NCBI GenBank assembly: GCA_963827655.1
Contig: CAWHCF010000004.1
Coordinates: 106,880 to 170,879 of the forward strand
From: an uncultured Acidobacteriota bacterium
Lineage (GTDB): Bacteria; Acidobacteriota; UBA6911
Length of the DNA: 64,000 nucleotides
Direction of reading: 5' to 3'
In this document: positions 33,234 to 59,592 of the stretch, piece by piece
Position numbering within the stretch: position 1 is the first letter of the stretch
Layout of the letters: each line of letters starts with the position of its first letter
Made by a program: the position numbers and the translations under genes
Notes under the pieces: model-generated
What the model saw: only the letters and a program-made list of their open reading frames with translations
The model's database searches: none
What the model was told of the DNA's origin: nothing

Positions 33234-33400
33234 AGGTAGAACTCTGGCATCACACCCTGCGGGTGGGGATTGCCCTGGAGCTCCTCACGGTGCTGGTATC
33301 TTAGAATCAAGCGCCGGGCGAGAAACAATACCCGATTCCCGGCACTGGCGTCTTCGACACCTTGGTGATAAGAGTATTACCGTCACGATCAGGAGCTGTC

Positions 33401-34594: not shown

Positions 34595-34632
34595 TTTCAA
34601 CCACCCACTGCCAGGACACCAAAAAGGAAGAG

Positions 34633-35816: not shown

Positions 35817-36914
35817 CTAAGAAAGCGCGCGCTCGTAGCAACGCATCGTCGCGCGGGCCGCAGCTTCCCAGGTATACTGCCGGGCTCGTTCCCGACCTCT
35901 TGCCGCCAGGACCAAGCGCTTTTCCTCATCCCGGGCCGCTTCTTCGAGCGCGATCCGCCATTGGTCCACGTCATCAACATCGGCGATCCAACCGGCGTCT
36001 CCTACCAGCGATGTCAGCGGCTCAATCCGTGCGACCACCACGGCGGTGCCGGAGGTCATGGCCTCCAGCACCGGCAATCCGAATCCTTCCATTCGAGAGG
36101 GATAGACGAAAGCCAGCGCGGCTTGCATCAGAGCAGGCAGGTCGTCTTCCACGACGTAGTCCAGTAACCGCACCCTCGACTGGATTCGCAATCTACCAAG
36201 ACTGCGCATGACGTCTTTCCAGAGCCAGGCTCTGCTGCCGGCCAGGACCAGCTCGACTTGATTCAGGTTCGACTGTCCAAAGGCCTCCAGGAGCAGAAGA
36301 AGGTTTTTTCGAGGTTCGATGTTGCCGAGATAAAAGAAGAAGGGCCTTGCGAGGCGATACTTCTGCAATACCGCCTCTTTTTGCTCCGCACTGCAGACTT
36401 TGGTGAAGATCTTTCGGGCGCCGAGGGGGACTACGCAGAGCCTGGAGGGTGGGACCGGCAGCCAGGCGCTCAAGTCGGCGCGGGTTGCTTCGGAGTCGCA
36501 GAGGACGACGCGCGCGCCGAGGATTGCGGGGCGAATCAGCCTGCGCATCCAGATTCTGCGGGTCCAGGGATGCCACTCGGGGTGTCGAATGAGGCTCAGG
36601 TCGTGAACCGTGACTACGTAGGGGACGCGTACACGCAGAGGCGCGACGCTGTTGGTAAAGTGACACAAATCGGGATGGTATTGCGCCAGGATGCGAGGCA
36701 ACCAGGCTTGCATCCAGATCTCCTTGATGGGGAAGGCAAGTTTCTGGGTGCGAATCAGATTGACTGCGCGCGGGACATAGTCCGGAAGATGGGACAGTAC
36801 CAGATACTCCCGGTCGGGAAACTCCGTCGAGAGAGCGTCGAGTAGTGAGGCGGCATAGTGGCCTACTCCAGACTGGTACTTTCGCAGGGGACTGGCGTCA
36901 AATCCGATTCTCAT
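35817..36914 (-). CDS. GT4-family glycosyltransferase
   Basis: VVTVHDL, GNIEPRKNL, YPSRMEGFGLPVLEAM. Confidence 0.93.
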   Translation of the reverse strand: MRIGFDASPLRKYQSGVGHYAASLLDALSTEFPDREYLVLSHLPDYVPRAVNLIRTQKLAFPIKEIWMQAWLPRILAQYHPDLCHFTNSVAPLRVRVPYVVTVHDLSLIRHPEWHPWTRRIWMRRLIRPAILGARVVLCDSEATRADLSAWLPVPPSRLCVVPLGARKIFTKVCSAEQKEAVLQKYRLARPFFFYLGNIEPRKNLLLLLEAFGQSNLNQVELVLAGSRAWLWKDVMRSLGRLRIQSRVRLLDYVVEDDLPALMQAALAFVYPSRMEGFGLPVLEAMTSGTAVVVARIEPLTSLVGDAGWIADVDDVDQWRIALEEAARDEEKRLVLAARGRERARQYTWEAAARATMRCYERALS

Positions 36915-38664
36915 CGGGATCATTGCCGCTCGCACATACGACACCTAAAGAAATCCAGAAAAGCAGAAAGGTCGGAGTGAATTTCAAGAAATAATCGACC
37001 GAACCATGCAGCAAGAAAGCCAGGAAGTATGTTATTCCATAAAAAACTGTTGCACGATCGGCTGGCGACATGGCCTGGCGCAGTCTGGCCCATAAAGCCC
37101 GGCCCATCTCGAAAAGTAGCCAGAGCAGCGACAGGAAGCCGATGATCCCGCTTCCGGCGAGATACTCCAGATAGAGACTGTTGGCTAGAATGGTGTCGTC
37201 TCCCGCAGGAATATCCATGTACTTCCACTTGAGAAGCCGGAAGCTGTCGGGACCCAAGCCGAACCAGGGTCTCTCGCGAAACATTTTGAGGGCCGCGCGC
37301 CACAGACTCCATCGGCTGGGAACCAGATTCCGACCCTGGGTGTCTCGTTCCTGCTGCAGGAGCTTGCCATGCGCGAAGGCTTCGCCTGTCGGAAGCGGAG
37401 CAGGGCCGTTTTTCGAGTCATGGATGATGATGATCTGAGGTGTCGAGTTGGAACGCTCAACCTCTTCGATATACGAATGGCGCTCGGGAAATGAACCACA
37501 CGAGCGTGTACTCCCCTTCGCGCGAAGGTGTCTTAAGCATTACTTCCACCTTTCGTTCCTCGCCAGGGAGTACGTCTGAAGCGAAGATCGCTCCCTCCAT
37601 CAACGCGCTCGGCTCCCCCGTGGCAAAACGATACCAGCGATACGCGACGCCAAATCGCTTCCCCTCCCACGCTGTCGAAGAATCGTTCCGGACAATTATG
37701 GCTTCCCGGTATTCCTGACCCGGAGATAAGTATCGGACCGGGTCTGTAACGGGAAGCGAATAGTGCGCGACGCGGCTTCCGGCAGCCGGGGCCTGGGTCT
37801 CGATGTGGGCATAGCGCAGTCTGACGGCGTTACCTATTCCGGCCAGCAGCACCACAACGGTTCCTGCGACGGCCAGTCTCCACCATTTCTTGACGAACGA
37901 TTCTCGAAAGACCCACTATTGCGGTTACCAGCGCGAGGATGGCGGAGCCCAGAGCCCCGCGCGAATAGGTCAAGAAGATCGCCGGCACCTGAACGGCCGC
38001 AGCCGTGAACCAGAGTCCCGGCAAGCGCTGCGATCCAGACGCCGGTCGAACAGCCGCGAGGGCGATAGTAGCGGCGAGCGACGCCACCAGGAAATGCGCG
38101 GCCGTATTAGGGTTCTCCATTGTGGATTTGAAACGCACGCGGCCCCCCACCAAATGATCGCTCGACTGGAAAATCTGCGCGATGCTGTCGAAGAACCGGA
38201 TGCCCGCATGTTCGCCCAAACCGATGACGGCCGTACAGAATCCCGCGATCGAAAGCGCAATGAGAAGACGTACGCCCGTGTGACGCCGGACCGTTGCCCT
38301 GCGGCTCAGGTCGGCCGCCGCGATCAGCATGACTACTCCAAGGAGCGACTTCACAGAGGCTTTGGCTGCATTGAACCTGAATTCGGTCGCGAGCATTGCG
38401 GCAAGTGCTTGCGAGACGATGTATAGGAGACGAGGCTAGCAGGAGACGGGGTGGCAGGGAAGGACTGAGCTTGCGCAGGATGGAGCCCGAAGACGTGGCC
38501 GCCTCGACCATCTTCATCACGATCCAGCATCCCAGGAAAAGAATGAGCTGGAGCTTCAGGCTGGTATACAGGGACTCGGTCGTCGTGTAGAAGTAATACT
38601 CGAAAGGAAGCCCCAGGATCAGAGCATACAGAAGAATCTCACAAGCTTGTCGGAGCACCTGCAC
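36898..38664 (-). CDS. O-antigen ligase/Wzy_C-like membrane protein with inserted Ig-like domain (multiple frameshifts)
   Basis: NPN..A, LTYSRGA, R..LW.AA..MF.ERPWFGLGP, ANSLYLE.L...G..G across several frames; many hydrophobic segments. Confidence 0.75.
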
Positions 38665-38892
38665 CTCTCGATCCAGTGTTTCTTCGAGTCTTTGCGTCCT
38701 GGTGGCGCCGTTGCACTGACCGCCAAGACACAACGACCCGAAGCATCTTAGCGGAACGATGGATTCATGCGCTAGACTCCGATGCGGCCGACCCTGCGCT
38801 GTGTCCTGGCGGTAGTTTTCGTTTGCAAGGTCTCGATCACACGACTAATATTCTTTACGCATTTGAAAGACGGCCTTTTTACGGACGATTCA

Positions 38893-40395
38893 ATGCCCTC
38901 GAGAAAGATAGTCTTCTTCTTCCCTGCCTTCTCCAGTCTCGAAGCAACTGCGCCGCTCGGGATTCTGGCGGTTGCTACTCCTCTGCTTCGAGCAGGCTAT
39001 CAGGTCCGGATCATCGATTCGACCATCACGCCAGGATTTCAGAAGCGCGTCCTGGAGGAGCTTCAGGATGCCCTGTGCCTCGCGGTTTCGCTGGTGACTG
39101 GACCCATGATCCGCGAAACAGTTGCGATTGCGCGGGAAACCAAGAAGCTCTATCCCAAGCTGCCGGTGATCCTCGGTGGATGGCATCCCTCGCTGCTGCC
39201 GGACCAGACTCTCGCGGCGGACTATGTTGACATTGTCGTGAGAGGTCAGGGAGAAGACGCACTCCTCGAGATCGTCGAGCGTCTGGAAGCGGGGGCCTCG
39301 CTCGAGGGAATTGATGGCGTGGGTTACAAGGAAGACGGAAGACTGGTTTTTAATCGGCCGCGTCCCCTGACCCCGATCCGAGATCTTCCTCCCAAAGCCT
39401 ATCATCTGGCTGATTTCGACGCGTATGAACGGGTGTGCGGCCGCCGCTGGGCCATGTACATTTCCAGCCTTGCCTGTCCCTATAGCTGCGCCTACTGCAC
39501 CAATGAAGGAGTATACGGCCGGCAGTGGAACGCGCTGGAACCGGAGCAGGTGGTCGAGGAGACCACCGATCTGGTTACGCGCTATGGGCTGCAGCTGCTG
39601 TGGGTCGTGGATGACAACTTTCTGGTTGACCGCGAGCGCGCGGTGAAGATCGCAGAAGGGCTCGTGCGCCGCGGAGTCTCATTCGACTGGAGCATCCAGG
39701 CCTCGACCAACCTTGTGACACGCCTGTCGGTCGAAGAGCTGAAGCTTCTTCGTCGCGCGGGCCTGTCGCAAATCTGCCACGGCGCAGAATCGGCATCCCC
39801 GAAGGTGTTGAAGCTGATGAACAAGGACTTTCAAAAAATCGACACCATTTACGGGGCGGCGGAGAAGTGCGTACAGGCGGGAATTCGGCCATCGTTCAAC
39901 GTCATCTTCGGCTTTCCCGGCGAAGGTGAGCCGGAAAGGCAGGAGACGATTCGCTTCATCATGGACGTCTGCCGCCGCTATCCGGGAGCCGAATTCTGGA
40001 CCAATATTTTCACGCCTTATCCGGGCGCCCCGATCATGCAGCGCGCGGCGGAATTAGGCATCGAGACCCCGGATTCATTCGAGGGATGGGCCGATTTTTT
40101 CCCTCGCTATACCATTCTCCCGTGGCTGAAAGGACGCAGCCATCAAAGGGTCCAGGCCATGCGCGACTACCTTCGAGTTGCGTTTGATCGAGTCCCGATT
40201 GCAAGCGATCGACGGCACAGGGTCACTCGCCTGGTTCACCAGGCGATAAGCCTTCCGGCTCGCTGGCGCCTGGATCACAACGTCTATGGCCTTCCCCTCG
40301 AAATCTGGGCCAAGAACGCGGTGAATCGAGTGTTTGAATCACCCAAACCGATAGTGGACGCCCAGCAGTTGTCCTCGGAACCTGTCACATGTTAG
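38893..40395 (+). CDS. Cobalamin-binding radical SAM enzyme 1
   Basis: PLG, GGWHPS, VRGQGE, CPYSCAYC, DDNF, GAES, IFGFPGE, PYPG. Confidence 0.93.
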   Translation: MPSRKIVFFFPAFSSLEATAPLGILAVATPLLRAGYQVRIIDSTITPGFQKRVLEELQDALCLAVSLVTGPMIRETVAIARETKKLYPKLPVILGGWHPSLLPDQTLAADYVDIVVRGQGEDALLEIVERLEAGASLEGIDGVGYKEDGRLVFNRPRPLTPIRDLPPKAYHLADFDAYERVCGRRWAMYISSLACPYSCAYCTNEGVYGRQWNALEPEQVVEETTDLVTRYGLQLLWVVDDNFLVDRERAVKIAEGLVRRGVSFDWSIQASTNLVTRLSVEELKLLRRAGLSQICHGAESASPKVLKLMNKDFQKIDTIYGAAEKCVQAGIRPSFNVIFGFPGEGEPERQETIRFIMDVCRRYPGAEFWTNIFTPYPGAPIMQRAAELGIETPDSFEGWADFFPRYTILPWLKGRSHQRVQAMRDYLRVAFDRVPIASDRRHRVTRLVHQAISLPARWRLDHNVYGLPLEIWAKNAVNRVFESPKPIVDAQQLSSEPVTC

Positions 40396-40523
40396 GCGGA
40401 CGGGCTATCGGGCTTCCGCCGTGGAACGAATTGAAGGCTTTTCAAATACCGGGTTGGAACTGAGTAGGAAAATATCTTAACCCAACCCTGGCCTCCCTGG
40501 CACCAGCTTCCTACTCCAATTCA

Positions 40524-42024
40524 ATGAATAATAAAGTTGTGTTGTTCCTTCCGCCTTATACTGGTGCCCCGCTGGGCCCGCCCCTGGGACTTCTCTGCCT
40601 GGCGTCTCCTCTTCGTGAAACAGGGTATGAGGTTAAGATCATCGATGCGTCTATAACTCCGAACTATCTTGAACTCGTCCGAAGAGAAATTCAGGACGCG
40701 CTCTGTTTCGGCGTCTCTTTGCTCACAGGACCCATGATCCGAGGCGCGATCGCAGCCAGTTCCCTGGTCAAGAGTCTGCGGCCCGACCTCCCCGTAGTGT
40801 TCGGCGGATGGCACCCCAGCCTCTTGCCCGCGCAAACCCTGCGCGAAAGCTTTGTCGACATCGTGGTCCGCAATCAGGGGGAGATCACGTTCCTGGAGGT
40901 GGTGGAGCGGATTCGATCGAATCAAAGTCTCACAGGTGTTCAGGGTTGTTCGTTCAAGTCAACCGGCCAGATTCATCACAATCCCGATCGTCCGGTCGCG
41001 CGGATCGAGACGCTGCCTGCGCCGGCATACGAGCTGGCGGATTTCGATGCTTACGAAGCAGGTGAGCGGTGAGCGAAAGCTCCCCTATGCCAGCAGTGTC
41101 GGCTGCCCTTATGCTTGCAACTACTGCACCGATACGGTGTTCTACAAGCGGCGCTTCAATGCCTATAGCGCCGCAGAGGGTGGTGCGAGAAGTAACGGCG
41201 CTGGTCGCCCGCCATCGGTTGAGTGAAGTGGCGATGCTGGATTCCAACTTTCTGGTCGACACGCGCCGGGCGGTAGAGATCGCTCGAGGATTTCTGGCAT
41301 CCGGCTTGCGCTTCCGGTGGACCTTCCAGGCTTCGACCGATCTCCTGTGCCGGATGAGCGACGAGGAGGTGCGACTCCTCGGTGACAGCGGCGTCAGCCA
41401 CATTGGATTCGGGACCGAATCGGCATCAGCCGAGGTCCTGGAGAAGATGGACAAGCATCATCAGCCAGATCCCGGACATGTTCGAGACCGGGCGTAAATG
41501 CCGGCAGGCCGGAATCCGGGCCACGTTCAATTTGATTCTGGGCTACCCCGGTGAAACGGAGCGGGATCGCTGCGAAACGTTGCGTGTCATGAGCGAGATC
41601 GGTCAGCGTTTCGACAATGTGACTTTTTCTCCCAATATTTTCACCCCTTACCCCGGAATTCCAATCTGGCCTGAACTCCGAAACCTCGGGGTGAAGGAGC
41701 CGGAAACGCTCGAAGCCTGGAGCACGATCGCTCTGGGAACCAACATGCTGCCATGGCTGCGGGGCGAACCTTATCGCAACGTGAAGCGCAGCATGTCGTT
41801 TTTCATGTTGAACAACGAAATCACAAAGCTGATCCGCAGAGGTTCGCTCGTCACGTCTGCACCGCTTCCTGCTGCGCGCGTTACAACGACCCTTGCACTG
41901 GCGCATGAAGCATTACTGCTTTCGATGCCCGCTCGAGCTCTGGGTCGTGAGAAACCGGCTGGTGATGCGCCGTTCACTCCTCACCGGTCAAAGCTTGGGA
42001 GAGAGCCTTTCGGAGACCTGTTGA
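40524..42024 (+). CDS. Cobalamin-binding radical SAM enzyme 2 (several frameshifts)
   Basis: PPLGL, GGWHPS, GCPYACNYC, DSNF, GTES, ILGYPGET, FTPYPG across ORFs 40524, 40852, 41069 and 41382. Confidence 0.88.
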
Positions 42025-42087
42025 CAAGAGCAGTAGGCAGTAGGCAGCGGGCTGGCGCGTCCGCCACAGAGAAGCGGAGCGGGTATA

Positions 42088-43530
42088 ATGGCTGATATTC
42101 TCCTGACTCATTGCAACCACCTGTACTTCGATCGCAAGCAGGTGCGCAAAATGCAGCCCTACCCTCCGTTGCAGACCCTGATCGCGGCGGCCCTGCTGCG
42201 CAGGGAAGGGTTCGATGTGGCGCTGTTTGACTCCACGCTGGAGCCGCCGGAAGAGGGCTTCCGGGCCGCGCTGGCACGACACCGGCCGCGTCTCGTCGCT
42301 CTGTGCGAAGACAACTTTAACTTTCTGACCAAGATGTGCCTTACCCGGAACCGGGAGCTTGCGTTCTCGATGTGCCGGACGGCCAAAGAAACTGCGATTC
42401 CGGTCCTGGTGAACAGCTCGGACGCGACGGATCACGCCGGGGAATACCTGTCAAACGGCGTCGACTATGTCATGGTGGGCGAGCTAGAGCATACCCTGCT
42501 GGAAACGGCGCGATGCCTTCTCGAGGGCCACACCGATCGGATCGAAAACATCGATGGCCTCGTGTACCTCGACTCGCGCACGGGCGCGGCGCGCTACAAC
42601 CGGCCGCGGGGGGTCATGGCGAACCTCGATCTCTTGCCCCTCGCCGCCTGGGACCTGATCGACGTGGCGCCCTACCGCCAGGCCTGGATGCAGGCCCACG
42701 GCTATTTTTCGCTGAACATGGTTTCCAGCCGCGGTTGTCCATATCATTGCAACTGGTGTGCGAAACCGATCTACGGCCAGAGTTACCATTATTGCTCGCC
42801 CGATCGGATCGCCCGCGAGATGCAGCATCTAAAGACCCACCTGCGGCCCGACCATATCTGGTTCGCGGACGACATTTTTGCGCTTTCGGCGCAGTGGACT
42901 GCGCAGTTCGCAGACGCGGTCGAGAATCTTCGGGCGCAGATACCCTTCAAGATGCAATCTCGCTGCGACCTGATGACCCGGCCTACCGTTGCGGCGCTCA
43001 GGCGCGCCGGCTGCTCCGAGGTTTGGATGGGGGCCGAGTCCGGATCTCAGAGAATCCTGGATGCAATGGACAAAGGAATTTGCCTCGAGCAGATTCACCA
43101 GGCCCGCGAGAATCTGCGCCGGCACGAGATTCGCGCTTGTTTCTTCCTGCAGTTCGGTTATCCGGGGGAGGATTGGGACGATATCCAGAGCACGATCCGG
43201 CTGGTTCGGGAGACAGAGCCCGACGACATAGGAGTCTCGGTTGCCTATCCCCTGCCGGGCACGAAGTTCCACGAAAGAGTGGTCGCCCAGCTGGGTGAAA
43301 AGAAGAACTGGCTCGATAGCGACGACCTGGCCATGATGTTCCGCGGCACTTATACCAACGATCTCTATCACGCCTTGCACGACGCGCTCCACCTCGAAGT
43401 GGATCTCCGGAAAAGCAAAGACAAGGACAACGAGAGGCACAAGGCTCTGCGTGACCTCTGGGCCCGAGTGGAAGAATTACGCACTACCTGTGCCAATCCT
43501 GATCCCACGGTTCTATGGACCTCCTCCTGA
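42088..43530 (+). CDS. Cobalamin-binding radical SAM enzyme 3
   Basis: PYPPL, SSRGCPYHCNWC, ADDIF, GAESGSQRIL, FGYPGE, YPLPGT. Confidence 0.93.
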   Translation: MADILLTHCNHLYFDRKQVRKMQPYPPLQTLIAAALLRREGFDVALFDSTLEPPEEGFRAALARHRPRLVALCEDNFNFLTKMCLTRNRELAFSMCRTAKETAIPVLVNSSDATDHAGEYLSNGVDYVMVGELEHTLLETARCLLEGHTDRIENIDGLVYLDSRTGAARYNRPRGVMANLDLLPLAAWDLIDVAPYRQAWMQAHGYFSLNMVSSRGCPYHCNWCAKPIYGQSYHYCSPDRIAREMQHLKTHLRPDHIWFADDIFALSAQWTAQFADAVENLRAQIPFKMQSRCDLMTRPTVAALRRAGCSEVWMGAESGSQRILDAMDKGICLEQIHQARENLRRHEIRACFFLQFGYPGEDWDDIQSTIRLVRETEPDDIGVSVAYPLPGTKFHERVVAQLGEKKNWLDSDDLAMMFRGTYTNDLYHALHDALHLEVDLRKSKDKDNERHKALRDLWARVEELRTTCANPDPTVLWTSS

Positions 43531-44917
43531 CCCACGGTTATTTTCTCAGAGAAGACCCGAAAGAGCTTGCGGTCATGAAGCCCTACGCTCCGCTCGGGAT
43601 TCTCTATCTGTCCTCTCATCTCAGGAAAAAAGGATTCGAGGTCGAGATCTTCGATACAACTTTCCGCGCGCGCGCAGATCTTCTCGCGATTGCTCGAGAC
43701 CGGTCCTCCTTCGGTGGTGGGCATCTACGGAAATCTTATGACGCGCCGGACCGTCCTGGAGTTGACCGCATGCGCGCGGGACGCCGGGTGGACCGTCATT
43801 CTGGGAGGCCCGGAACCCTCCACCTATGCCCGGGAATATCTGGAGGCCGGCGCTCATGTCATCGTGCAGGGCGAGGGCGAGATAACCATGGAGGAACTGC
43901 TCCCTGCATTGCGAGCCGGTCGCGACGCGCGCGCTCGAGCGCGTCAACGGCATCATCTTCCGGCGCGCGGATGGTTCGGTTGCACACACTCCGCCGCGTA
44001 CTTTAATCGCCGATCTTGACTCGCTGTCCTGGCCCGACCGGGAACGCGTGGACATCGAAGACTATATCAAGGTCTGGAAAGACCATCACGGCATGGGCTC
44101 GGTCTCGGTCATAACCGCCCGCGGGTGCCCTTATCATTGTCGCTGGTGCAGTCACTCCACTTATGGCAAGACCCACCGAAGGCGATCGGCCGGATGTGTG
44201 GTGGACGAGGTCGAGTGGATCGTTCAACGCTACCAGCCGGACATGCTCTGGATCGCCGACGACGTATTCACTATCCATCACGGGTGGATTTACCGGTACG
44301 CGGAGGAAATGAAGCGGCGCAATCTTCGGATCGCGTTCGAGTGCATCACGAGAGCCGATCGCCTGAATCCCAGAATCGCCGACACATTGGCCGAGCTGGG
44401 TTGCTTTCGCGTCTGGGTAGGGTCCGAGAGCGGATCCCAGCGAATACTGGATGCCATGGAACGAGGAGTTACGGTGGAGCAGGTCCGGCAGTCCATTCAT
44501 CTTTTGCGCGCCCGGGGCATTCAAACCGGAATGTTCCTCATGTGGGGTTATGAAGGGGAAGACATATCGGATATCGAAGCCACCGTGACTCACGTCAAGT
44601 CTTCCATGCCCGACGTCTTTCTCACGACGGTTTCTTATCCGATCCGGGGAACGCCCTATTACGAAGAAGTCGAGTCGCGGCTGGTCAACCTGGCCGAGTG
44701 GAGCCGAACCACAGACCGGGACTTCAAGCTTCGCGGACGTCACTCGAGGAGGTTCTTCGGGTTTGCCGATCAGCTGCTGAAGAATGAAGTCGGGCTCCAC
44801 AAGTTGATGATTTCGCCGGAAGCGTCTCCCGACGCCGCCACGGTGGCATACTTTCGGAGACAGATTGACGAAGCCCGGCAGGGGCTTCAGCAATCGTACG
44901 AAGAGGTCGAAGCGTGA
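43515..44917 (+). CDS. Cobalamin-binding radical SAM enzyme 4 (two frameshifts)
   Basis: PYAPLG, GGPEP, GEGE, TARGCPYHCRWC, ADDVF, GSESGSQRIL; overlaps enzyme 3. Confidence 0.9.
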
Positions 44918-44943
44918 CCGACTGCGGATCGCGAAGAGTTCGG

Positions 44944-45818
44944 ATGCCAGGATTGAACCATCAGGCTGCTTGCCAGTCAGCAATCCAAGGTCGCGGCGGC
45001 ATTCGATGCGCTGGCTGCGCGCTATGACGACACGTGGACCGACTCGGTTATCGGGCGCCTCCAGCGTGAGTCCATCTGGCGGGCCATCGACGGTATTTTC
45101 ACTCCCGGCGGGCATATTCTGGATCTTGGTTGTGGAACCGGAGTCGATGCGGCGCTATCTGGCCCGTGCCGGACTCCGAGTTCACGCGACCGACATCTCA
45201 GGCGGCGATGCTGCAGGCCACGCGGAAGCGGTTGGAGCGAGAAAGAATCACGGACCGAGTGACCTTCGAGCTGAGGGCGCTGGAGGATCTCGCGCTTCTG
45301 AAAGAACGCGGCCCATTCGACGGAGCCATTTCAAATTTCGGTGCGATCAATTGCGTGCGAGGATTTACCGGGCGTCGCTTCAAGCCTGGCAGAATTGATT
45401 CGTCCCGGCGGCAGGCTGGTCATTTGCTCGATGGGCCGATTCTGCCTTTGGGAGTCGCTCTGGTACCTCATGCACGCGACGCGCCGGGAAAGCTGTTCGA
45501 CGGTGGAGTGGCGCCGCACCGGCGGGACATGTCCGGAAGACCGAAATGACGCGCAGGCCTCCTTTGGTACGCGGCCGCCGCTTTGAGGTTTTTTATCCCA
45601 CGGTCGCTGAGATTGCATCAGCATTTAGACGAACACTTCCGGCTGATTCAATTTCGCAGCATCGGAGTATTCGTGCCTCCTTCCTACATGGAGAGTTGGG
45701 CCGCGAGCGGCGCCGGCCTTTATGCGCCGGCTGGGGCGCCTCGATTTCCATGGTTGGCGCATGGCCCGGTCTGCGAGCTATCGGAGACCATCGCTTGCTG
45801 ATTCTCGAGCGATCCTGA
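44944..45818 (+). CDS. Class I SAM-dependent methyltransferase 1 (frameshifted)
   Basis: Manual reading gives AFDALAARYD..ILDLGCGTGVDA, then FDGAISNFGAINC and RPGG. Start is approximate. Confidence 0.8.
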
Positions 45819-45866
45819 CTATGGCTTCCTATGCGGCACCCTGCGGATCAAACCAGAGTCCCTGAA

Positions 45867-46817
45867 ATGGAGCAGCGTTCGTTGAAGCTGCGCTGTCCGT
45901 CGTGCTTCGCCCCTGCCGGCGAGCTGAAAGGCGCCGCGAAGAGGGGAGAACCTGCCTTTCCTGCGGCTATCGCATGGAATGGGTCGAAGGCATTCTGCGC
46001 GCCGTGATCCCGGAGCGCCGGAAATTCTATGATCGCTTTCTGACGGAATACTCGACCATTCGAAAGGCTGAGGGGCGCGGCTCCGATGATCCCGCGTACT
46101 ATTTGGCGCTGCCGTACAGGGACTTGACCGGAAGGCATGCCGAACAGTGGGCCATCCGGGGTAAGACCTATCGCTATTTCGAGGAACGCGTGCTGCCTGC
46201 AGCTCGAAACCGGCCGGCCTCTCGACATTCTGGATCTGGGAGCCGGAAACGGCTGGATGTCTTACCGCCTGGCTCAGAGAAAACATCATCCTGTGGCGGT
46301 CGACATCCTCACCGATCCGTTGGATGGGCTGGGCGCCGCCCGGCATTTCCACGCCGCGCTCGACGAGAAGTTCCCGCTGGTTGAGGCGGAATTCGATCGT
46401 CTTCCGTTTCGCCGACGCTCAGTTTGATCTTGCGATCTTCAACTCTTCGATTCACTACTCGTCGCATTATCATCACACTCTGAACGAGGCGAGACGCTGC
46501 TTGCGTCCTTCAGGGCGTGTGGTGATCCTTGACTCCCCGATCTACAGGAAATACTCCCATGGCGACCTGATGCGATCCGAACGCCATCGAGAGTTTGAAG
46601 CGCGCTATGGCACTCGTTCAGACTCAATCCCGAGCGTTGAATTCCTGCACCAGGCGGTTCTGGAAGAATTGGCGGATTCACTTGCATCTCAGTTGGGAAA
46701 TCTACAAGCCCTGGTACGGTTGGAAGTGGGCGCTCCGTCCCTGGAAGGCTCGCCTGAAGCAGGCAGAGGCCTCCGTCTCGCTTCTGGATTCTCGTCGCCA
46801 CCTGGGCTCGGTCATGA
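45867..46817 (+). CDS. Class I SAM-dependent methyltransferase 2 with N-terminal Zn-ribbon-like Cys pairs (frameshifted)
   Basis: CPSC...CLSC, ILDLGAGNGW, FDL..FN.S.HY, LRPSG; ends in an ATGA overlap with radical SAM 5. Confidence 0.8.
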
Positions 46818-48279
46818 TCATCTTCCTTCACCCGCGCGCAACCAGCCCGCGAAGCCGGCGATTTCCGCTCTCGATCCTCGCGCTTGCGGCTGTCGTGGAA
46901 GGGAGAGAGGAATACGAAATCGTAGACGGCAACATCGACCCCGATCCCTGGGAATCCTTGCGGCGGCTGATGCGGCATAAGACTGCAGAATTGCTGGCGG
47001 TCTCGGTTATGCCGGGTCCTCAAATGAAGGCCGCCATTCCCCTGTGCCGGGCTTTTCGTGAAGAGTACCCGTCGGTCCCGATCGTGTGGGGCGGCTACTT
47101 CCCCTCTCTCTATCCTGATGCGGCCCTGAACTCGAACTACGTCGACTTCGCCGTTCGCGCTCAGGGCGAGGATACTTTCCTCGAGCTGATCGCGGCCCTT
47201 CGTGGCGAGCGCGATTTTTCCAGGATTCTCGGTCTTTCTTTCAAAGACCACTCGGGCCGGCGTGTTCACAATCCTGAGCGTCCGATGCGCTCGCCCGAGG
47301 AGTATCCCTGGCCCCCATATCACCGGCTGGAGGTTTCGAAGTACATCCTTCCCACGTTCCTGGGCTCGCGCACCGCCGTGCACCAGGCCAGCATTGGCTG
47401 TCCCTTCCGGTGTAATTTTTGCGGGGTGATTTCGGTGTACGGGAGCCGCGAGAAAATGGAGTCGCCTCGGCGCACGGCGGCAATCTTAGGGCACCTTAAG
47501 CAGCGCTTTGGCGTCAATGCCATCCAGTTTTACGACAATAATTTCTTCCTGCGCGACGACCATGCCCGCGAACTGGCGGAGCGGCTGACGCCGCTCGAAT
47601 TGCGCTGGTGGTGCGAAGGTCGCGTCGACACGGTTCTCGGCTACTCTGATCAGACCCTTCGCGCTTTGAAGAGAGGCCGGATCCACGATGATCTTCTTCG
47701 GCGCGGAATCGGGTTCGGACTGGGTGCTCGAGCAGATGAACAAGCAACTCAAGGCGGAGCAGACGCTCGCTCTGGCCGGAAGAATCCGGCAGTTCGGCAT
47801 TGTGCCCGAGTTTTCTTTCATACTGGGGAATCCGCACGACCCGGAACGCGATACGCGCGAGTGCATCGCGTTTGTTCGAAAGATCAAGCGGATTAACCCC
47901 CAGGCCGAGATCATCATTCAGCACTACATTCCTGTGCCTCAGCGCGACGGGATGTACGGTCAGGTCGAGGGTAAAATCGAGTTTCCCACGACGCCTGAGG
48001 AGTGGGCGACAGACCGGTGGTACAACTTCACCGTCAGGACCGACCCGAAGCTGCCGTGGCTGCCGGATCAAATCCGGCGCCGGATCGACGACTTCGAGCT
48101 CGTGATAAATTCGCGCTGGCCCACGGTGCAAGACATCCGGCTGCCCGCGTTGGGGACGCGCGGCACTGAAGTCGCTCAGCAGCTGGCGCTACCGCCTGGG
48201 AATCTACCGATTCCCTCTGGAGCTTGCCTGGGCGCAGAAAGTGATCGATTTACGAAAACCCAAGGTCGAGAGTATTTGA
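46814..48279 (+). CDS. Cobalamin-binding radical SAM enzyme 5 (frameshifts)
   Basis: FPLS, WGGYFPS, VRAQGE, SIGCPFRCNFC, DNNF, GAESGS; ends LRKPKVESI-stop. Confidence 0.9.
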
Positions 48280-48989
48280 ACCATTCCCTATTACAACTGG
48301 AAAACCGGTCAACCCGCATAGTGTCGCCTGCGGAAGGGCACCGGATCTGGTCTGAGAGCTATGATAGCCAGCCCAACCCTCTGCTTGCCCTCGAGTTTCG
48401 CTATCTTTCCCGCATGATGCCGGAGATCGAAGGACGGCTGGCGCTGGACGTGGCTTGCGGGACCGGTCGATGGCTGGGTTACCTGGTTACACACGGGGCG
48501 CGAGCCTTTGGAGTCGACACCTCGCGTGAGATGCTGCTCCATGCGTCGAAAAAGCCGGGACTTCGAGAACGTCTGATGCGCGGCGACCTGTGCCATCTTC
48601 CATTCCAGAACGGGTGTGCGGATCTGGTGATCTGCGCCTTTTCTCTCGGGTACATAAGAACGCTCGAGCAGGGTCTAGCCGAACTGGCGCGGCTGGTGAA
48701 GTCGGGCGGATCTGTGATCGTCAGCGATTTTCATCCTGAAGGACACGCTCGAGGCTGGAAGCGCGCCTTCCGGAGCGGCTCGCACAGCTACGAGATCGAA
48801 CATTATCCATACACGATTGAAAGGTTGCTGGAAGCTGCTCGAAATGCGCGTCTGGATCTGGAAGAGCTTCAAGAGCCAGGTCTCGACGAACCGGAGCGGC
48901 GCATTTTTCAGGAGGCCGGCAAGGAGACCCTGTTTGAGGAAGCGCGCGGCGTGCCGGCGGTGCTTATTGCTCGCTGGAGACGGCGGTAA
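48276..48989 (+). CDS. Class I SAM-dependent methyltransferase 3 (BioC/UbiE-like)
   Basis: TTGA overlap start; W...YD..PNPL, LDVACGTGR, GVD.S.EML, LPF, SDFHP. Confidence 0.88.
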   Translation: MNHSLLQLENRSTRIVSPAEGHRIWSESYDSQPNPLLALEFRYLSRMMPEIEGRLALDVACGTGRWLGYLVTHGARAFGVDTSREMLLHASKKPGLRERLMRGDLCHLPFQNGCADLVICAFSLGYIRTLEQGLAELARLVKSGGSVIVSDFHPEGHARGWKRAFRSGSHSYEIEHYPYTIERLLEAARNARLDLEELQEPGLDEPERRIFQEAGKETLFEEARGVPAVLIARWRRR

Positions 48990-48995
48990 ATAGAC

Positions 48996-49071
48996 CTTGG
49001 CGTTTCTTCGTGTCTTTGCGTCTTAGCGGTGTCAGAAGCCAACCACGAAGACTCAAAGACACGAAGAAACA
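48996..49071. repeat. Inverted pair of the dispersed CCACGAAGACACGAAG-type repeat
   Basis: gtttcttcgtgtctttgcgtcttagcggt faces accacgaagactcaaagacacgaagaaac; related single copies near 9050, 18976, 27201, 35781, 38676, 50742, 61338 and 63553. Confidence 0.75.
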
Positions 49072-49079
49072 GGCGTGAC

Positions 49080-49304
49080 TACAAGATAAGTCGGCATTCC
49101 ACTTCTCGCCGGTACGAAAGGGTCTCGCTTTCTCTCAAGATACTTCCGGCAAGGCTCTTGGAATCTCGAGAGGGCTTTGTGTAAGCCACGACTCGGACCA
49201 TCGGGCGACCACGTTTTGTTATTACTACGGGATCTCTGGTTTCTGCTACCGTCGATAATTCTCAGACACTGGTCCTTGAACTTGGCTGCAGTGATGGTTT
49301 TCAT
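49080..49304 (-). pseudogene. Phd/YefM-family antitoxin, frameshifted and orphan
   Basis: MKTITAAKFKDQCLRIID continues in another frame as TVAETRDPVVITKRGRPMVRVV. End is approximate. Confidence 0.75.
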
Positions 49305-49516
49305 ATTTTGCAATATGGCCATGACCATATAGCCATGTCAACCATCGATCTCTCGCTTCCCAGGCCGTCGCTTGGGAAGTATTTAATAGCCCTGAGGACT
49401 TGCGCCTTCGGGCCGGCTCTTGTCACTTTGGGAGGAATCGGTTCGCGGCCAAGGTCACGGTTTTTTCGTTCGGGAGCTGGAGTCCAAGGATTTATGATGA
49501 GGAACGGTGGCGCGGC

Positions 49517-50795
49517 ATGGCACAAGAACGGTCGTGGATTCTGCGGGGAGCGCGAATAGCGCGAGGAGCCGAAGAGACAGAGGCAAGCGATATCGAGATT
49601 CGTGCCGGGAAAATCGTCGCCCTTGAATCGTCGTCGCCCATCCCGGGCACGCGCGCTCGAGCTCGATCTGCGCGGTTGTCTGGTATTGCCCGGCTTGATC
49701 AATGCCCACGACCACCTCGAGTTCAGTCTTTTTCCCCGTCTGGGACGCGGACCCTATCCCAACGCCGGCGCCTGGGCGCGCGACATCTACCAGCCGCATC
49801 GTTCGCCGATAAAGGAACATTTGCGCGTTCCCCTGCCGGTTCGGCTTCGCTGGGGCGGAATCAAGAACTTGCTGAGCGGCGTGACGACGATCTGCCATCA
49901 CAATCCTTACAACGCTCGAGTCTTCGAGCATAACTTTCCCGCGCGTGTGCAGAAGAGATTCGGCTGGGCGCACTCCCTGGAGTTTGCTCCCGATCTGGAG
50001 TTGCGTTTCCGCGAGACTTCGCCGGAGTGGCCCTTTATCGTTCACCTCGGCGAGGCGAGGGATCGCACCGGGAAACTCGAGATTTTTCGACTCAACCAGC
50101 TTGGCGCCCTGGATGAGCGCACTGTCCTGGTTCACGGAGTCGCTTTGGGAAGGCAGGGACTGCGGCTGTCGAAGGAAAAAGGAGCGGCGCTGGTTTGGTG
50201 CCCAAGCTCAAATCTGTTTATCCTGGGGCGCACCCTGAGCCAGGCGGCGCTCAATAACGGCGTTCCCCTGGCTCTCGGCACCGACTCCGCGCTGAGCGGA
50301 AAGGGAGACCTGCTTGATGAGTTCCGCCTGGCGCAGCGAGTCTCCGGTCTTTCATCAAGCCGTCTCTATCGGATGGTTACCGAGGATGCGGCCCGAATCC
50401 TGCGGCTGGAAAACGGCGAAGGGACAGTAACGGAAGGTGGCGTGGCTGATCTCCTGGTCGTGAGAGACAATGGAAGAAGCCCGGCCGAGACGCTCACGAG
50501 ACTTCGAACCGGCGCCATGGAAATGGTGATCCTGGGAGGGAGGATCAAGCAAGTTTCACCGCGCCTGGCGCCTCGGCTCCCGGCTACCGTCCGGAAGCGA
50601 CTCCGTTCCCTCACTGTAGAAGAGAAACGAAGGGTCTTTCTTGATGCGGATCTTCCCGGGATCTACGCACGGACGTCGCGTGTGCTCGGTCCCGAGATCC
50701 GACTCGCCGGGAAAAAGATCCGCATCGACATAAGCGGGGCGAAACAAATACCGCCAGGACGCAAGGACACGAAGAAACAGCAAGCAAGCGCATGA
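49517..50795 (+). CDS. Metal-dependent amidohydrolase (deaminase-like; frameshift near 49640)
   Basis: DLRGCLVLPGLINAHDHL, SGVTT, VHLGE, LVHG, WCPSSN, LGTDS, ADLLV. Confidence 0.88.
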
Positions 50796-51778
50796 TTCCT
50801 GACATTATCGAGAAGCTCCCGATTCTGATTCTTTATCCCCACAGTCGATGCAACTGCCGCTGCGTGATGTGTGATATCTGGAAGATCGACACGGTGCGTG
50901 AGATCAGCATCTCTGACCTGGACCGTCACGCCGGCGATATCCAGTCCCTCGGGGTCCGGTGGGTGGTCTTCTCGGGCGGAGAGCCTCTGATGCACTCCGA
51001 TCTCTTTCGACTGAGTGACCGGCTGCGCGAAGCGGGCATCCGGACCACGATACTGACCACGGGCCTTCTGCTGGCGAAATACTCGAGCTCAATCGTCAGC
51101 CGGCTCGACGACGTGATCGTCTCCCTGGATGGACCTCGCGAGGTTCACGATCGAATCAGGCGGATCCCGCGCGCGTTCGATCTGCTGGCGGGCGGAGTGA
51201 ACGCCATTCACGCGCGCAAGCCCGAATTCCCGGTTGCGGCGCGCTGTACGGTCCAGCATGAGAATTTCTTGAGCCTGCGCGAAACTGTGCGAACGGCTAA
51301 AACAATGGGTCTCCAGTCCATTTCATTTCTGGCTGCGGACCTGACCTCCGAGGCGTTTAACCGGCCGCAAGGTTGGTCGGGGGAGCGCCAGGCCAGCGTG
51401 GCGCTGAACGGTGAAGAAGTGAATCTGCTGGAGAACGAGATCGAGACAATGATTCGCGAATCAGCGGAAGATCCGGCCTACGTGCTCGAGACTCCGGAGA
51501 AGCTGCGACGCATTGTTTATCATTTCCGCGCGCATCTGGGTATGGTCGAGGCGGTATCGCCGCGCTGCAATGCCCCGTGGGTGTCGGCCGTGGTCGAGTC
51601 GGACGGCACAGTTCGTCCCTGCTTCTTCCATAAACCCATTGGCAACATCGGCCGCGATACGCTTCGCGCGGTATTGAACGGACCGGAGGCAATGGAATTT
51701 CGCAGGACCCTCGACATTTCCCGGAATCCGATCTGCCGGCGCTGTGTTTGCTCGCTTCACCTTTCGCCTGTGCCGTGA
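50792..51778 (+). CDS. Radical SAM enzyme with SPASM/twitch domain
   Basis: CNCRCVMC, SGGEPL, VSLDG, C-terminal CNAPW..VESDGTVRPC..CRRCVC; ATGA overlap with the amidohydrolase. Confidence 0.92.
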   Translation: MIPDIIEKLPILILYPHSRCNCRCVMCDIWKIDTVREISISDLDRHAGDIQSLGVRWVVFSGGEPLMHSDLFRLSDRLREAGIRTTILTTGLLLAKYSSSIVSRLDDVIVSLDGPREVHDRIRRIPRAFDLLAGGVNAIHARKPEFPVAARCTVQHENFLSLRETVRTAKTMGLQSISFLAADLTSEAFNRPQGWSGERQASVALNGEEVNLLENEIETMIRESAEDPAYVLETPEKLRRIVYHFRAHLGMVEAVSPRCNAPWVSAVVESDGTVRPCFFHKPIGNIGRDTLRAVLNGPEAMEFRRTLDISRNPICRRCVCSLHLSPVP

Positions 51779-52141: not shown

Positions 52142-53734
52142 TTATCGCTCGAGCTGATAGACCTGGAGCGGCATCCCGCCGTCTTCGCGGATTTCTCGAA
52201 TCAAACGGGCCTTGTGTTGGCTCATATAGGCCCAAAATTCATCATGATAAACAGACATCCCTGGCCGAGAACGGTCCAGGAGGTTTCGCATCGTAGTCGC
52301 GTCGAGCAAAACGATGTCCGGGGCATTTAACTTCATGGCTTCGGCAAATGGAATGGGATTTTCGTGCCTCTCTGGATCCGACAGAAGCAAGGGCAGATAG
52401 AAAGATCGATATTGCCGATCAGCGAGAGCAAGCCAATAGATCTCGCGCCCCAGTACACGGGCCGACGAAGGAACCACCTGTCTTAGCTCGCTAAAGATCT
52501 GGCGGGGGGGTACCGCTTGGCTCGCAGTCCGCTGCATCCGGAAAATGGCCCAGGCGCCCTGAAACACCGTCAGCCCGACAATCACCACCACGACCGCGCG
52601 GTACGCTCCTCTGCGCGCTTCTAGCAGATGAGCGAGCAACGCCGCGACGAGAAGCGCAAAAAGAGGGGCTACAGTCACCAGATAACTGAAACGTTTGATC
52701 TTGACCAGCAGAGCGAACAGTAAAGGAAACACCAGACAAGGCACCAGCAACCACAATGCCTCCCGGTCTCTAAGCCGGGCCGCCCGCCCCCAGAGCCAGA
52801 CCAGCGCTGCGGGAACGCCCAGGGCTATGAGCCAGAAACCGGGATGGACCATTGTTGCCATCTCGCCCACCCCCAGAGCATAACGATGCCGTTCGTTGAG
52901 GATATTCTCGACATAGAAGGAAAGGCTCAGAGGTTTGAATGTCTCACGACTTAAGATCAGCTGCCCCTTATAGTCATCCCAGTTAGAAGCTAATACGAAG
53001 ATCCAGATGAGCCATGGTACTGATGCTCCAGCCATTATCTGGCCGAGGCTGCGAAGAGTGGGTTGATACGTGAAGTAAAGGCGCTCCAGCAACAAGAGCA
53101 AGAGTAACGCGACAATCCAGAATAAGCCGTAGTAGTGAGCCAGGCCTGCCATCCCCGCCAGCAGTCCAGCCAGAAAATCATGTCGATTGCGCCCGGTGGA
53201 ACGCGCGCGCAGCCAGAACCACCAGGCGCCCAGACCGAGCGGCGGGACGAGAATGTCGTAGCGCGCAATTCGTGAAACATCGACCAGCGGAATGCCCGTG
53301 CTCATTATGCGGTCGTTACCTGCCCCCCACGGCCAGAACAGGAGTAACAGGACGGCGAAAAGCCCTATGGGACGACTGCTCATGCTCAATTTGCGCGCGA
53401 CCGCATAGGTGAGGATGAGGGTCAGCATTCCGAGAGCTACCGGCACGACGCGCATTTGAAAGACCCCGAGACCGAAAAGACGTGAGGCCGCGCCCTGCAG
53501 TAAGGACATCAGGGGCATGAACTCCAGATAGTGGCGCTCCATTCCGTAATAACCTGTGAAAAGGTCGGAGCCGAAAATGCCTTGCGTAAAAAACTTGTAG
53601 CCGGGTGACAGGATCCAGGGTTCATCTTCCTGAAGGGGCGGAAAGCGATCGAGGTTCCAAATCGAGATTGCGCCGAAGACGATGACCAGTATTGTTAACG
53701 CAGCAAGATCAGCCTTTCGAAGTTTGTCGTTCAT
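52142..53734 (-). CDS. ArnT/GT39-like (GT-C) membrane glycosyltransferase
   Basis: Acidic EDE after TM1, multiple TMs, ARYD, AGLLAG.A...H motifs. Confidence 0.75.
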   Translation of the reverse strand: MNDKLRKADLAALTILVIVFGAISIWNLDRFPPLQEDEPWILSPGYKFFTQGIFGSDLFTGYYGMERHYLEFMPLMSLLQGAASRLFGLGVFQMRVVPVALGMLTLILTYAVARKLSMSSRPIGLFAVLLLLFWPWGAGNDRIMSTGIPLVDVSRIARYDILVPPLGLGAWWFWLRARSTGRNRHDFLAGLLAGMAGLAHYYGLFWIVALLLLLLLERLYFTYQPTLRSLGQIMAGASVPWLIWIFVLASNWDDYKGQLILSRETFKPLSLSFYVENILNERHRYALGVGEMATMVHPGFWLIALGVPAALVWLWGRAARLRDREALWLLVPCLVFPLLFALLVKIKRFSYLVTVAPLFALLVAALLAHLLEARRGAYRAVVVVIVGLTVFQGAWAIFRMQRTASQAVPPRQIFSELRQVVPSSARVLGREIYWLALADRQYRSFYLPLLLSDPERHENPIPFAEAMKLNAPDIVLLDATTMRNLLDRSRPGMSVYHDEFWAYMSQHKARLIREIREDGGMPLQVYQLER

Positions 53735-53996
53735 TCTCACTCGCCGGAAAAACTGGGTTGGACCTGCGCTCCAGGCTTGACGGAATATAGAAGCTCGTGT
53801 GCCAATATACAATCGTTTAGAAACGGCCAGGCTCGGAGAGACTACTCGACCTTGTGTCTTCTTGCGAGACGCGACAAAATATTGACCTGCACTTTTCGGT
53901 CGCGCGGGTTCTTCGCTCCTGGCCGTTGAGGTTGTTTTCCAGCAATAACCACAAGGCGCAAAGTCGAAAAGAGATGCTGAATCCGGGAACTTGCTA

Positions 53997-57730: not shown

Positions 57731-57830
57731 ATTGAGGTATCTTCGCGATTCGCTATGGCTTGGTGGTGATACACCAAGTATACAACCGAGCTTGCGGGAG
57801 AGGCAGGAGAGAAGGACATTATCTTACATG

Positions 57831-59411: not shown

Positions 59412-59592
59412 TTGCGGCTTCCCACCCTTGAGCTGTGAGTCTACCCGCGCGGTCCGGTCGCGGCAATGGAATTGCGTTTTTGCTCTAATGGTTCGGAAGA
59501 AATCACGACTATGTCAGTGGAAAGCGAATAATCGACACAAAGAAGGGCCTGTGGAATTGACACCTTCGAGCGTTCGAGACTACGATTCCCAG

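Follow-up and report, generated by a model that had tools for sequence, protein, structure and literature searches.

A modular cassette of B12-domain radical SAM enzymes with a nucleotidyltransferase partner in an uncultured Acidobacteriota bacterium: a candidate pathway for surface glycoconjugate tailoring

Gene content of the locus

We analyzed a 64,000-nucleotide stretch of DNA (hereafter the window) from an uncultured Acidobacteriota bacterium of the UBA6911 lineage (assembly GCA_963827655.1, contig CAWHCF010000004.1), focusing on a cassette of ten enzyme genes at positions 38893-51778. Three-frame translation and Pfam scanning place all ten genes on the plus strand, in one orientation and in the order B1, B2, B3, B4, M1, M2, B5, M3, AH, SP (Table 1). 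Six of them, B1-B5 and SP, encode radical S-adenosylmethionine (SAM) enzymes. An earlier reading of this DNA from its letters alone (the sequence-only reading) had described ten co-oriented genes with stop and start codons overlapping at 43515, 46814, 48276 and 50792; we find the same arrangement and a further overlap at 44914. The intergenic gaps measure 128 bp between B1 and B2, 63 bp between B2 and B3, and about 530 bp between M3 and AH. The last gap is repeat-bearing: it contains a repetitive extragenic palindromic (REP)-like repeat (48996-49080) with 696 blastn matches on 46 of the 53 contigs of the genome and with high contig depth, and a related stretch lies near 50739-50779. The nonribosomal peptide synthetase (NRPS), polyketide synthase (PKS), phosphoenolpyruvate (PEP) mutase, cyclase and PqqD families have no match among the 59 open reading frames (ORFs) of the window that were scanned. 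These family scans, together with a check of small ORFs, agree with the earlier remark that the window holds no scaffold enzyme or precursor peptide. The ORFs at 33305-35767 are acyl-CoA dehydrogenase-like and do not belong to the system.

Table 1. Cassette genes and associated or neighboring genes in the window
Feature	Position	Strand	Description
B1	38893..40395	+	B12-binding-domain radical SAM enzyme, intact; PF02310+PF04055
B2	40524..42024	+	B12-binding-domain radical SAM enzyme, B1 paralogue; four frame breaks; located by tblastn with whole orthologues
B3	42088..43530	+	B12-binding-domain radical SAM enzyme, intact; altered cobalamin motifs; most widely kept member
B4	43515..44917	+	B12-binding-domain radical SAM enzyme, B3 paralogue (33%); two frame breaks
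M1	44914..45818	+	class I SAM methyltransferase; several frame breaks; start approximate; located by tblastn
M2	45831..46817	+	class I SAM methyltransferase, N-terminal Cys motif; several frame breaks; start approximate
B5	46814..48279	+	B12-binding-domain radical SAM enzyme; two frame breaks; canonical cobalamin motifs (from alignment)
M3	48276..48989	+	class I SAM methyltransferase, TTG start, intact; UbiE/BioC-like below cut-offs
AH	49517..50795	+	metal-dependent amidohydrolase, deaminase type; one frame break near 49634
SP	50792..51778	+	twitch-type radical SAM enzyme, intact; PF04055+PF13186
GT4 and Wzy_C-like pair	35817..38733	-	GT4 glycosyltransferase (35817-36944) and frameshifted Wzy_C/O-antigen-ligase-like membrane protein with Ig-like domain; divergent from B1
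GT-C (PMT_2) membrane protein	52142..53812	-	divergent from the next; weakly conserved, membership uncertain
GT-C (PMT_2) membrane protein	53991..55334	+	divergent from the previous; weakly conserved, membership uncertain
NTP_transf_5 nucleotidyltransferase	55542..56711	-	G...DxD motif; PF14907 E 1.5e-49
HprK-like kinase	56708..57730	-	PF07475 E 2.8e-8
GT-C (PMT_2-like) glycosyltransferase	57831..59411	-	Pfam E 1e-4, below cut-off
GT4-phosphoglycosyl transferase fusion	59395..61329	+	GT4 fused to polyprenyl phosphoglycosyl transferase (Bac_transf); PF00534+PF02397

The frameshifts, whose repair the sequence-only reading had recommended, were located by tblastn with whole orthologues. Four genes (B1, B3, M3 and SP) are intact, and breaks fall in the other six: four in B2, two in B4, three or more in M1, about five in M2, two in B5 and one in AH. 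Frameshifting of six genes out of ten is what a decaying relic would look like, but all six are whole in close relatives and frame breaks also strike the neighboring genes at 35817-38733. Moreover, among the best-supported indel rows listed, an extra base at each of four positions (41059, 45201, 47675 and 49634) is missing from short-read contigs of near strains from four public runs, that at 47675 in B5 being missing in contigs of two runs; these contigs represent DNA of relatives and not of the same strain. Because the breaks are absent in relatives and the four checked bases are missing from near-strain contigs, assembly errors are the likeliest cause of the six frameshifts, and decay of the cassette in the window genome is hardly credible.

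Core, variants and enzymes of the cassette

A Genome Taxonomy Database (GTDB) scan with B3 yielded at least 572 relatives, from which 80 loci were taken; 249 loci, many of which are truncated or represent reduced types, were compared overall. Besides the window, all ten genes are matched in 29 of the 249 loci, and 26 of these keep the order and orientation of the window. The homologues are co-localized in many other genomes; the sequence-only reading had named the opposite as grounds for refuting it. Among sampled genomes, 33 of 301 of the same phylum, 20 of 251 Chloroflexota (four of these 20 genes score better as B4-like) and 34 of 301 Bacteroidota carry B3-type genes, i.e. 8-11% of genomes in three phyla. 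Lineages hold from one to five B12-domain paralogues: all five B genes occur in only 4 of the 33 own-phylum loci, and many loci have one or two. Most carriers in the GTDB scan belong to Bryobacterales and Terriglobia. Two are non-pathogenic isolates: Acidobacteriaceae bacterium KBS 96 possesses the full ten-gene form together with the kinase and NTP_transf_5 genes, and Granulicella sp. L46 has a minimal form. In a plasmid search B3 was unmatched and B1 had matches of only 28-29% identity.

Two families of nucleotidyltransferase fold accompany B3. One, termed X here, is NTP_transf_2-like with invariant G, D and D residues, and its ESM Atlas names are hypothetical or NTP_transf_2; the other is NTP_transf_5, which comes with an HprK-like kinase as in the window. 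X and B3-type genes are present in exactly the same 20 of the 251 Chloroflexota genomes. Among 61 relatives, an orthologue of X or NTP_transf_5 was identified in 16 of 17 B3 carriers versus none of 44 non-carriers: nine carriers have X, and seven others have an orthologue of the window NTP_transf_5 gene (E below 1e-100), in three of them on another contig. X was found in no genome of either set that lacks a B3-type gene. The two types, which are not orthologous and stand in for each other, never share a locus (0 of 80 loci and 0 of 74 phylum-sampled loci). Homologues of the HprK-like kinase occur in 54 of the 249 loci, and NTP_transf_5 stands alongside in 15 of 20 HprK loci; the phylum-sampled X-type loci are without this kinase. 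In two loci X is fused to a GT4 glycosyltransferase, and in three relatives GT-C, kinase and NTP_transf_5 genes form a triad.

The cassette is modular: its core consists of B3 and a nucleotidyltransferase, and its largest form has the ten genes. Comparison of gene content and order assigns the NTP_transf_5, kinase and GT-C genes of the window (55542-59411) to the system, because B3 and the nucleotidyltransferase co-occur at the genome level and the triad lies directly upstream of B1 in two relatives. The system therefore reaches past the ten genes to which the sequence-only reading had confined it, having missed the nucleotidyltransferase, the HprK-like kinase and the flanking glycan genes. 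A second NTP_transf_5 gene of the window genome (contig C49, 358400-360019) lies beside a PqqD gene, possibly in a separate lasso-type cluster.

The earlier description of five enzymes with a cobalamin-binding-type domain and an intact CxxxCxxC is borne out by Pfam B12-binding domains in B1-B5 (B2, B4 and B5 being frameshifted in the window), with a marginal score for B3 (33.1 bits against a cut-off of 32.1), and by the motifs CPYSCAYC (B1), CPYACNYC (B2), CPYHCNWC (B3), CPYHCRWC (B4) and CPFRCNFC (B5). B1 and B2 are 41% identical in a relative, and B3 and B4 are 33% identical. The cobalamin motifs described for class B enzymes are G/A-x-S/T on beta3, Gly-Gly on beta4 and GE on alpha5, a single Gly being allowed (PMC9204698). 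The Gly-Gly pair, the beta3 Ser and the GE-type motif are found in 38, 36 and 38 of 38 B1 orthologues and in 29, 28 and 29 of 29 B2 orthologues; for B5 the respective numbers, with Ser or Thr on beta3, are 49, 49 and 44 of 49. The B4 orthologues keep Gly-Gly (50 of 52) and have Tyr in place of the beta3 Ser, the dimethylbenzimidazole (DMB)-binding residue, in 39 of 52 (12 unmatched, one Ser). In B3 orthologues Gly-Gly is seen in 2 of 84 and a single Gly in 70 of 84, the beta3 Ser is replaced in all 84, and the B3 of the window has no Gly at the site. Judged from these alignments, the cobalamin motifs of B1, B2 and B5 are canonical, and B3, the core enzyme, is the least canonical of the five. 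B1 is probably a methylcobalamin-dependent methylase, and B3 probably catalyzes the committed radical step, which is not necessarily a methylation.

Structural models of B3 and B1 (predicted local distance difference test scores 94 and 89) were compared with known folds by VIA-align and Foldseek. The top VIA-align fold is AprD4 for both B1 (Z 32.3, root-mean-square deviation 3.2, 420 residues aligned) and B3 (Z 30.6, 3.2, 428), followed by MgmA, OxsB, TsrM, CysS and TokK; this likeness gives no function, because the identities are only 14-21%. None of the NCBIfam models for BchE, HpnJ, HpnR, the ladderane B12-radical SAM enzyme, PhpK, MgmA, ApyD, BzaD, TsrM, KedN5 and AprD4 reached its cut-off (B2, B4 and B5 were scanned as fragments). 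The best score is that of B1 against BchE, 142 of 481 bits, and all other models fall further below their cut-offs. The automatic names of the cassette enzymes are generic or misleading (BchE, YgiQ), and the ESM Atlas matches of B3 bear generic names only. The sequence-only reading proposed a multi-methylation pathway, but that all five B12-domain enzymes are methylases is not established: B3 and B4 depart from the canonical cobalamin motifs, and AprD4, the nearest fold, is a dehydratase. A sixth B12-radical SAM paralogue, B6 (32-34% identical to B1/B2), was seen in L045, L050, L109, L129, L141 and other loci where B1/B2 are absent.

Among the remaining enzymes, the M1 orthologue matches Pfam Methyltransf_11/25 and the M2 orthologue is likewise assigned to a methyltransferase family, and PDB profile searches with both returned generic methyltransferases only and no specific relative. 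M3 and AH are fused into a single ORF in 22 loci. The AH alignment has invariant H36, H38, H148, E151, H178 and D228, a set of HxH, HxxE, H and D that we take to be a motif of the heterocycle-deaminase type; its best PDB matches are amidohydrolases, among them deaminases of methylthioadenosine/S-adenosylhomocysteine (MTA/SAH), 8-oxoguanine and guanine. AH, a nucleoside phosphorylase and a cytidine deaminase (CDA)-type deaminase were found in 33, 7 and 5 of 80 loci, respectively, and never together in one locus. This mutual exclusion fits either a nucleobase-bearing intermediate or the removal of SAM by-products. The small CDA-type deaminase by Bacteroidota-titled loci may be a local neighbor, because it occurs in only 2 of 21 phylum-sampled loci. 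SP has the motif CNCRCVMC, a twitch/SPASM domain and invariant C259, C277, C315, C318 and C320; its best PDB match is BlsE (E 4e-24), and BtrN weakly matches the C-terminal domain.

Glycan context, proposed pathway and alternatives

In most loci the cassette is flanked by glycan genes. The GT4/Wzy_C-like pair upstream of B1 also adjoins the cassette in five other loci, and the GT4-phosphoglycosyl transferase fusion has 60-65% identical counterparts among the neighbors in three loci. The two divergent GT-C proteins next to SP have a homologue in 1 of 249 loci each. Loci for Wzx/Wzy-type surface polysaccharides comprise an initiating phosphoglycosyl transferase, glycosyltransferases, a Wzy-like protein and a flippase; the window shows the GT4-phosphoglycosyl transferase fusion, GT4 and Wzy_C-like genes, and the 59 ORFs scanned gave no match to a flippase or Wzz, window position 64000 being the end of the contig. 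Once 21 of 80 loci had been dropped as too short, 59 remained with 6 kb or more of DNA outside the cassette; of these, 32 have a GT4 gene and 42 have any glycan gene, against a GT4 background of 2.1% of random 10 kb and 3.8% of random 21.4 kb windows of the window genome. In the phylum-sampled loci, glycan genes were found in 21 of 33 from the same phylum, in 20 of 20 from the second and in 13 of 21 from the third (Bacteroidota, counted in 21 of 34 carriers). Wzy-like, Wzz, Wza, flippase and GT-C genes recur near the cassette in all three phyla. Two ORFs at 61380-63390 (minus strand), between the GT4-phosphoglycosyl transferase fusion and the contig end, have no Pfam or NCBIfam match.

From the nucleotidyltransferase partner and the glycan context we propose, with somewhat better than even confidence, that the cassette encodes a modular pathway that tailors, by radical chemistry and methylation, a building block (phosphate- or nucleotide-linked) of a glycoconjugate on the cell surface. 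B3 would introduce a committed radical change, possibly other than methylation, into this building block. The nucleotidyltransferase, together with the kinase in the window type, would activate the product as a nucleotide derivative or transfer it to a sugar through a phosphodiester. B1, B2 and B5 would use methylcobalamin to add methyl groups to unactivated atoms, B4 would perform a second non-canonical radical step, and M1-M3 would add O- or N-methyl groups. SP could oxidize, epimerize or decarboxylate a sugar carbon, and AH could deaminate an amino-heterocycle, either on an intermediate or on the by-products SAH and 5'-deoxyadenosine. Finally, GT4, the phosphoglycosyl transferase, the Wzy-like protein and GT-C would assemble and export the acceptor. 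Variably decorated surfaces would follow from the one to five B12-domain paralogues per lineage. The nearest solved relatives of B1 and B3 (AprD4) and of SP (BlsE) act on sugars, and an HprK kinase and an uncharacterized NTP transferase install phospho-hexose on pseudomycoidin (PMC6993621). Of the substrates considered in the sequence-only reading, a surface glycoconjugate or nucleotide-linked compound is favored, and a hopanoid is a weak candidate (see below).

Several observations weigh against this proposal. The whole argument is guilt by association: the gene associations are shown, and every chemical step is inferred. The co-occurrence counts are not independent, as the genomes are kin, although the pattern is seen in three phyla. 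One B3 carrier has neither nucleotidyltransferase by the queries used, and another has X together with a weak (29%) NTP_transf_5 match. No glycan gene lies within the available DNA of 17 of the 59 loci and 12 of the 33 own-phylum loci, and neither an NDP-sugar dehydratase (NDP, nucleoside diphosphate) nor an aminotransferase is a fixed part of the cassette. Plain sugar methylation leaves the recurring GTP cyclohydrolase II, RibB, flavin-reductase-like, P450 and PhyH genes unexplained. As for the sugar-acting relatives, MgmA and TsrM equal or surpass AprD4 in the Foldseek ranking by E-value, the ranking by TM-score being led by AprD4, and B1 and B3 are only 18-21% identical to AprD4.

The GTP cyclohydrolase II gene characterizes one cassette sub-type, with the order PhyH, NTP_transf_5, M1, GTP cyclohydrolase II, B3, M2, AH, GT1, GT87, HprK, Wza. 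It was found in 44 of 80 metagenome loci of this sub-type and in four genome loci, directly before B3 in 41 of 47 ORFs and with its zinc motif in 44 of 47. Of 43 cassette copies in the phylogenetic tree, 41 group together (support 100/99) and are separated from five copies located elsewhere in genomes; the other two are on separate long branches. Such a dedicated enzyme may mark a GTP-derived heterocycle as the substrate, in the manner of ToxB for toxoflavin (PMC13755311), or merely an extra flavin supply. On the former assumption, the building block would be a flavin-, lumazine- or pterin-like compound that, after radical methylation and deamination, is joined through phosphate to the surface glycan and serves there as a chromophore or redox group. 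This reading, mostly a special case of the pathway proposed above, is possible but doubtful. So is its full form, a surface modification, widespread and so far undescribed, in which such a heterocycle is tailored by as many as five radical SAM enzymes with B12 domains and by three methyltransferases and is phospho-linked by a nucleotidyltransferase-fold enzyme. In an even sample of one family (f40), the cyclohydrolase paralogue stands beside B3 in 4 of 14 carriers versus 0 of 107 non-carriers; RibB occurs in eight loci and the flavin-reductase-like gene in nine, and the heterocycle-deaminase type of AH and its mutual exclusion with the phosphorylase and the CDA-type deaminase suit a heterocycle. 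However, the cyclohydrolase is missing in 10 of the 14 f40 carriers, one of the four copies has an internal stop, and the 80 metagenome loci are close kin chosen by likeness to one cyclohydrolase-linked B3. The gene is also absent from the window, loci L001-L080 and the Chloroflexota and Bacteroidota samples, and because it is absent from the window and most carriers we regard it as an optional accessory. Extra ribA/ribB genes could simply raise the flavin supply for cluster reduction, and by-product removal is an equally good role for AH and the phosphorylase. The ribA and ribBA genes of the window genome are on contig C17, away from the cassette, and no FMN or cobalamin riboswitch was detected by Rfam in the window or in four GTP cyclohydrolase II loci. 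A RibA-RibB fusion, the reverse of the usual RibBA order, lies beside a rearranged cassette in L213 (16461-17882).

The cassette might instead produce a diffusible nucleoside- or aminoglycoside-like metabolite, with the nucleotidyltransferase and kinase serving self-resistance and the glycan context being incidental. AprD4 and BlsE, the nearest solved enzymes, come from apramycin and blasticidin S biosynthesis, GT1 and a PhyH dioxygenase are present in 26 and 20 of 80 loci of the cyclohydrolase sub-type, and the nucleotidyltransferase PsmN was modelled on aminoglycoside nucleotidyltransferases (PMC6993621). The recurrence of polymer assembly and export genes in three phyla argues against this view, no exporter or resistance gene accompanies the cassette throughout, and X, unlike a mobile resistance gene, was never found in the sampled genomes without a B3-type gene; we consider such a metabolite rather improbable. 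[quoted passage not shown] Most carriers are members of the group to which Solibacter usitatus, a brGDGT producer, belongs (PMC10087280), and there are weak matches to the HpnJ, HpnR and ladderane models; the latter amount to 74-116 bits against cut-offs of 360-650, and the passages of PMC10087280 consulted name no such cluster. Six of the 17 B3 carriers, among them the window genome (90% complete) and a second genome (94%), yielded no squalene-hopene cyclase, nor did genomes G340 and G341; the enzyme is present in 21 of 44 non-carriers. No acyl carrier protein or fatty-acid synthase family recurs among the neighbors, and the nucleotidyltransferase has no role in chain methylation.

Because HprK and NTP_transf_5 occur in paeninodin-type lasso clusters, and both adjoin the cassette, modification of a protein or of a peptide made by ribosomes and modified after translation (RiPP) was also considered. 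Class B enzymes also methylate peptides. Yet no conserved precursor-like ORF was found among 1091 intergenic ORFs of 20-100 amino acids, no lasso cyclase or peptidase is among the recurring neighbors, the PqqD matches of the genome lie elsewhere, and the kinase is missing from X-type loci, so that a peptide substrate is very improbable. A phosphonate or phosphinate cluster is a weak reading: PEP mutase is identified by its EDK motif, and the two PF13714 matches, located elsewhere in the genome, are without ED[KQ].

Other genes were observed near the cassette. In eleven loci from two Acidobacteria lineages it is adjoined by a dCache_3 histidine kinase, mostly with response regulator, porin-like and carboxypeptidase-regulatory-like genes, and this kinase may regulate the cassette. 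Nine loci have a short cytochrome P450 (about 340 amino acids), often with a flavin-reductase-like gene. Three loci have genes for a porin-like protein, cytochrome c and a carboxypeptidase-regulatory-like protein beside the cassette (e.g. L213:19518-20891); the N-terminal heme motif of this porin-like protein is, we assume, of the Cyc2 type. Genes for DUF6580 and Peripla_BP_2 (BtuF-like) proteins adjoin the cassette in two loci (L213:14916-16359 and L216:2299-3255) and presumably may serve cobalamin uptake. Elsewhere in the window, both on the minus strand, are an Acido-Lenti-1 RNA (RF01687) above the gathering score (1206-1251) and nadC, nadA and an NrtR-type regulator of ordinary NAD biosynthesis (8119-11447).

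Comparison with known systems

Both the enzyme classes and substituted surface glycans as an idea are known, but the cassette pathway itself is not. No NCBIfam family comes near its cut-off, and no description of the cluster was found in the open-access literature searched, although genome-mining tables in supplements could list the genes. The pathway remains uncharacterized, as first suspected from the sequence, and no match to a characterized cluster emerged. Five or six new subfamilies of B12-radical SAM enzymes can be studied in the cassette, together with two uncharacterized nucleotidyltransferase families (X and NTP_transf_5), in a shared, testable context. Its carriers include abundant soil Acidobacteria, and the isolates KBS 96 and Granulicella sp. 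L46 allow a direct search for the product. Radical chemistry on a surface polymer, if true, would bear on phage receptors, the persistence of soil microbial residues and community demand for B12. If the heterocycle version were true, soil Acidobacteria, Chloroflexota and Bacteroidota would possess a tethered chromophore or redox group, and B3 would exemplify a repurposed B12-type domain.

In their N-terminal Rossmann B12-binding-type domain and radical SAM barrel, the cassette enzymes resemble TokK, TsrM, OxsB, CysS, MgmA and GenD1/GenK (fold Z 20-28), and B1, B2 and B5 keep the beta3 Ser, Gly-Gly and GE motifs of class B (PMC9204698). They differ from these enzymes in their low identity (14-21%), in the presence of five paralogues in one operon and in the altered motifs of B3 and B4; at the cluster level, they differ in the nucleotidyltransferase partner and the lack of an NRPS, RiPP or aminoglycoside scaffold. 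AprD4, a radical SAM 1,2-diol dehydratase acting on paromamine, a sugar substrate (PMC13707489), is matched by B1 and B3 over nearly the whole chain. However, the AprD4 model NF033070 gives only 50-85 bits against a cut-off of 500, AprD4 has CX3CX3C where the cassette enzymes have the canonical CxxxCxxC, and no AprD3-type reductase is constant in the cassette. Similarly, SP is closest to BlsE among BlsE/BtrN-type sugar enzymes, but the match spans residues 13-176 only and TIGR04466 scores 66.7 bits against 400.

The toxoflavin pathway, with ToxB (GTP cyclohydrolase II) and ToxE (deaminase-reductase), likewise combines a dedicated second cyclohydrolase, a deaminase and methyltransferases (PMC13755311). 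It is unlike the cassette in that ToxC and ToxD are not among the neighbors, the cassette contains radical SAM and glycan genes, and the cyclohydrolase is an accessory of one sub-type, the window being free of toxoflavin-type genes. Nucleotide-activated precursors that end as small glycan substituents are a feature of LicD-type phosphocholine, the Campylobacter O-methyl phosphoramidate and the methylthioxylose on lipoarabinomannan, which the proposed pathway resembles in this respect. To our knowledge, none of these builds its substituent with radical SAM or B12 enzymes. Fukutin- and LicD-type enzymes, which move ribitol-phosphate or phosphocholine, offer an analogy for the nucleotidyltransferase. 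The methylthioxylose cap itself is documented on lipoarabinomannan (PMC10675199). A precedent for the window type is provided by PsmK/PsmN of pseudomycoidin, an HprK-family kinase and a DxD nucleotidyltransferase that give a phospho-glycosyl link (PMC6993621); the cassette differs in having no precursor, RiPP recognition element, peptidase or cyclase, and in other lineages X replaces the pair.

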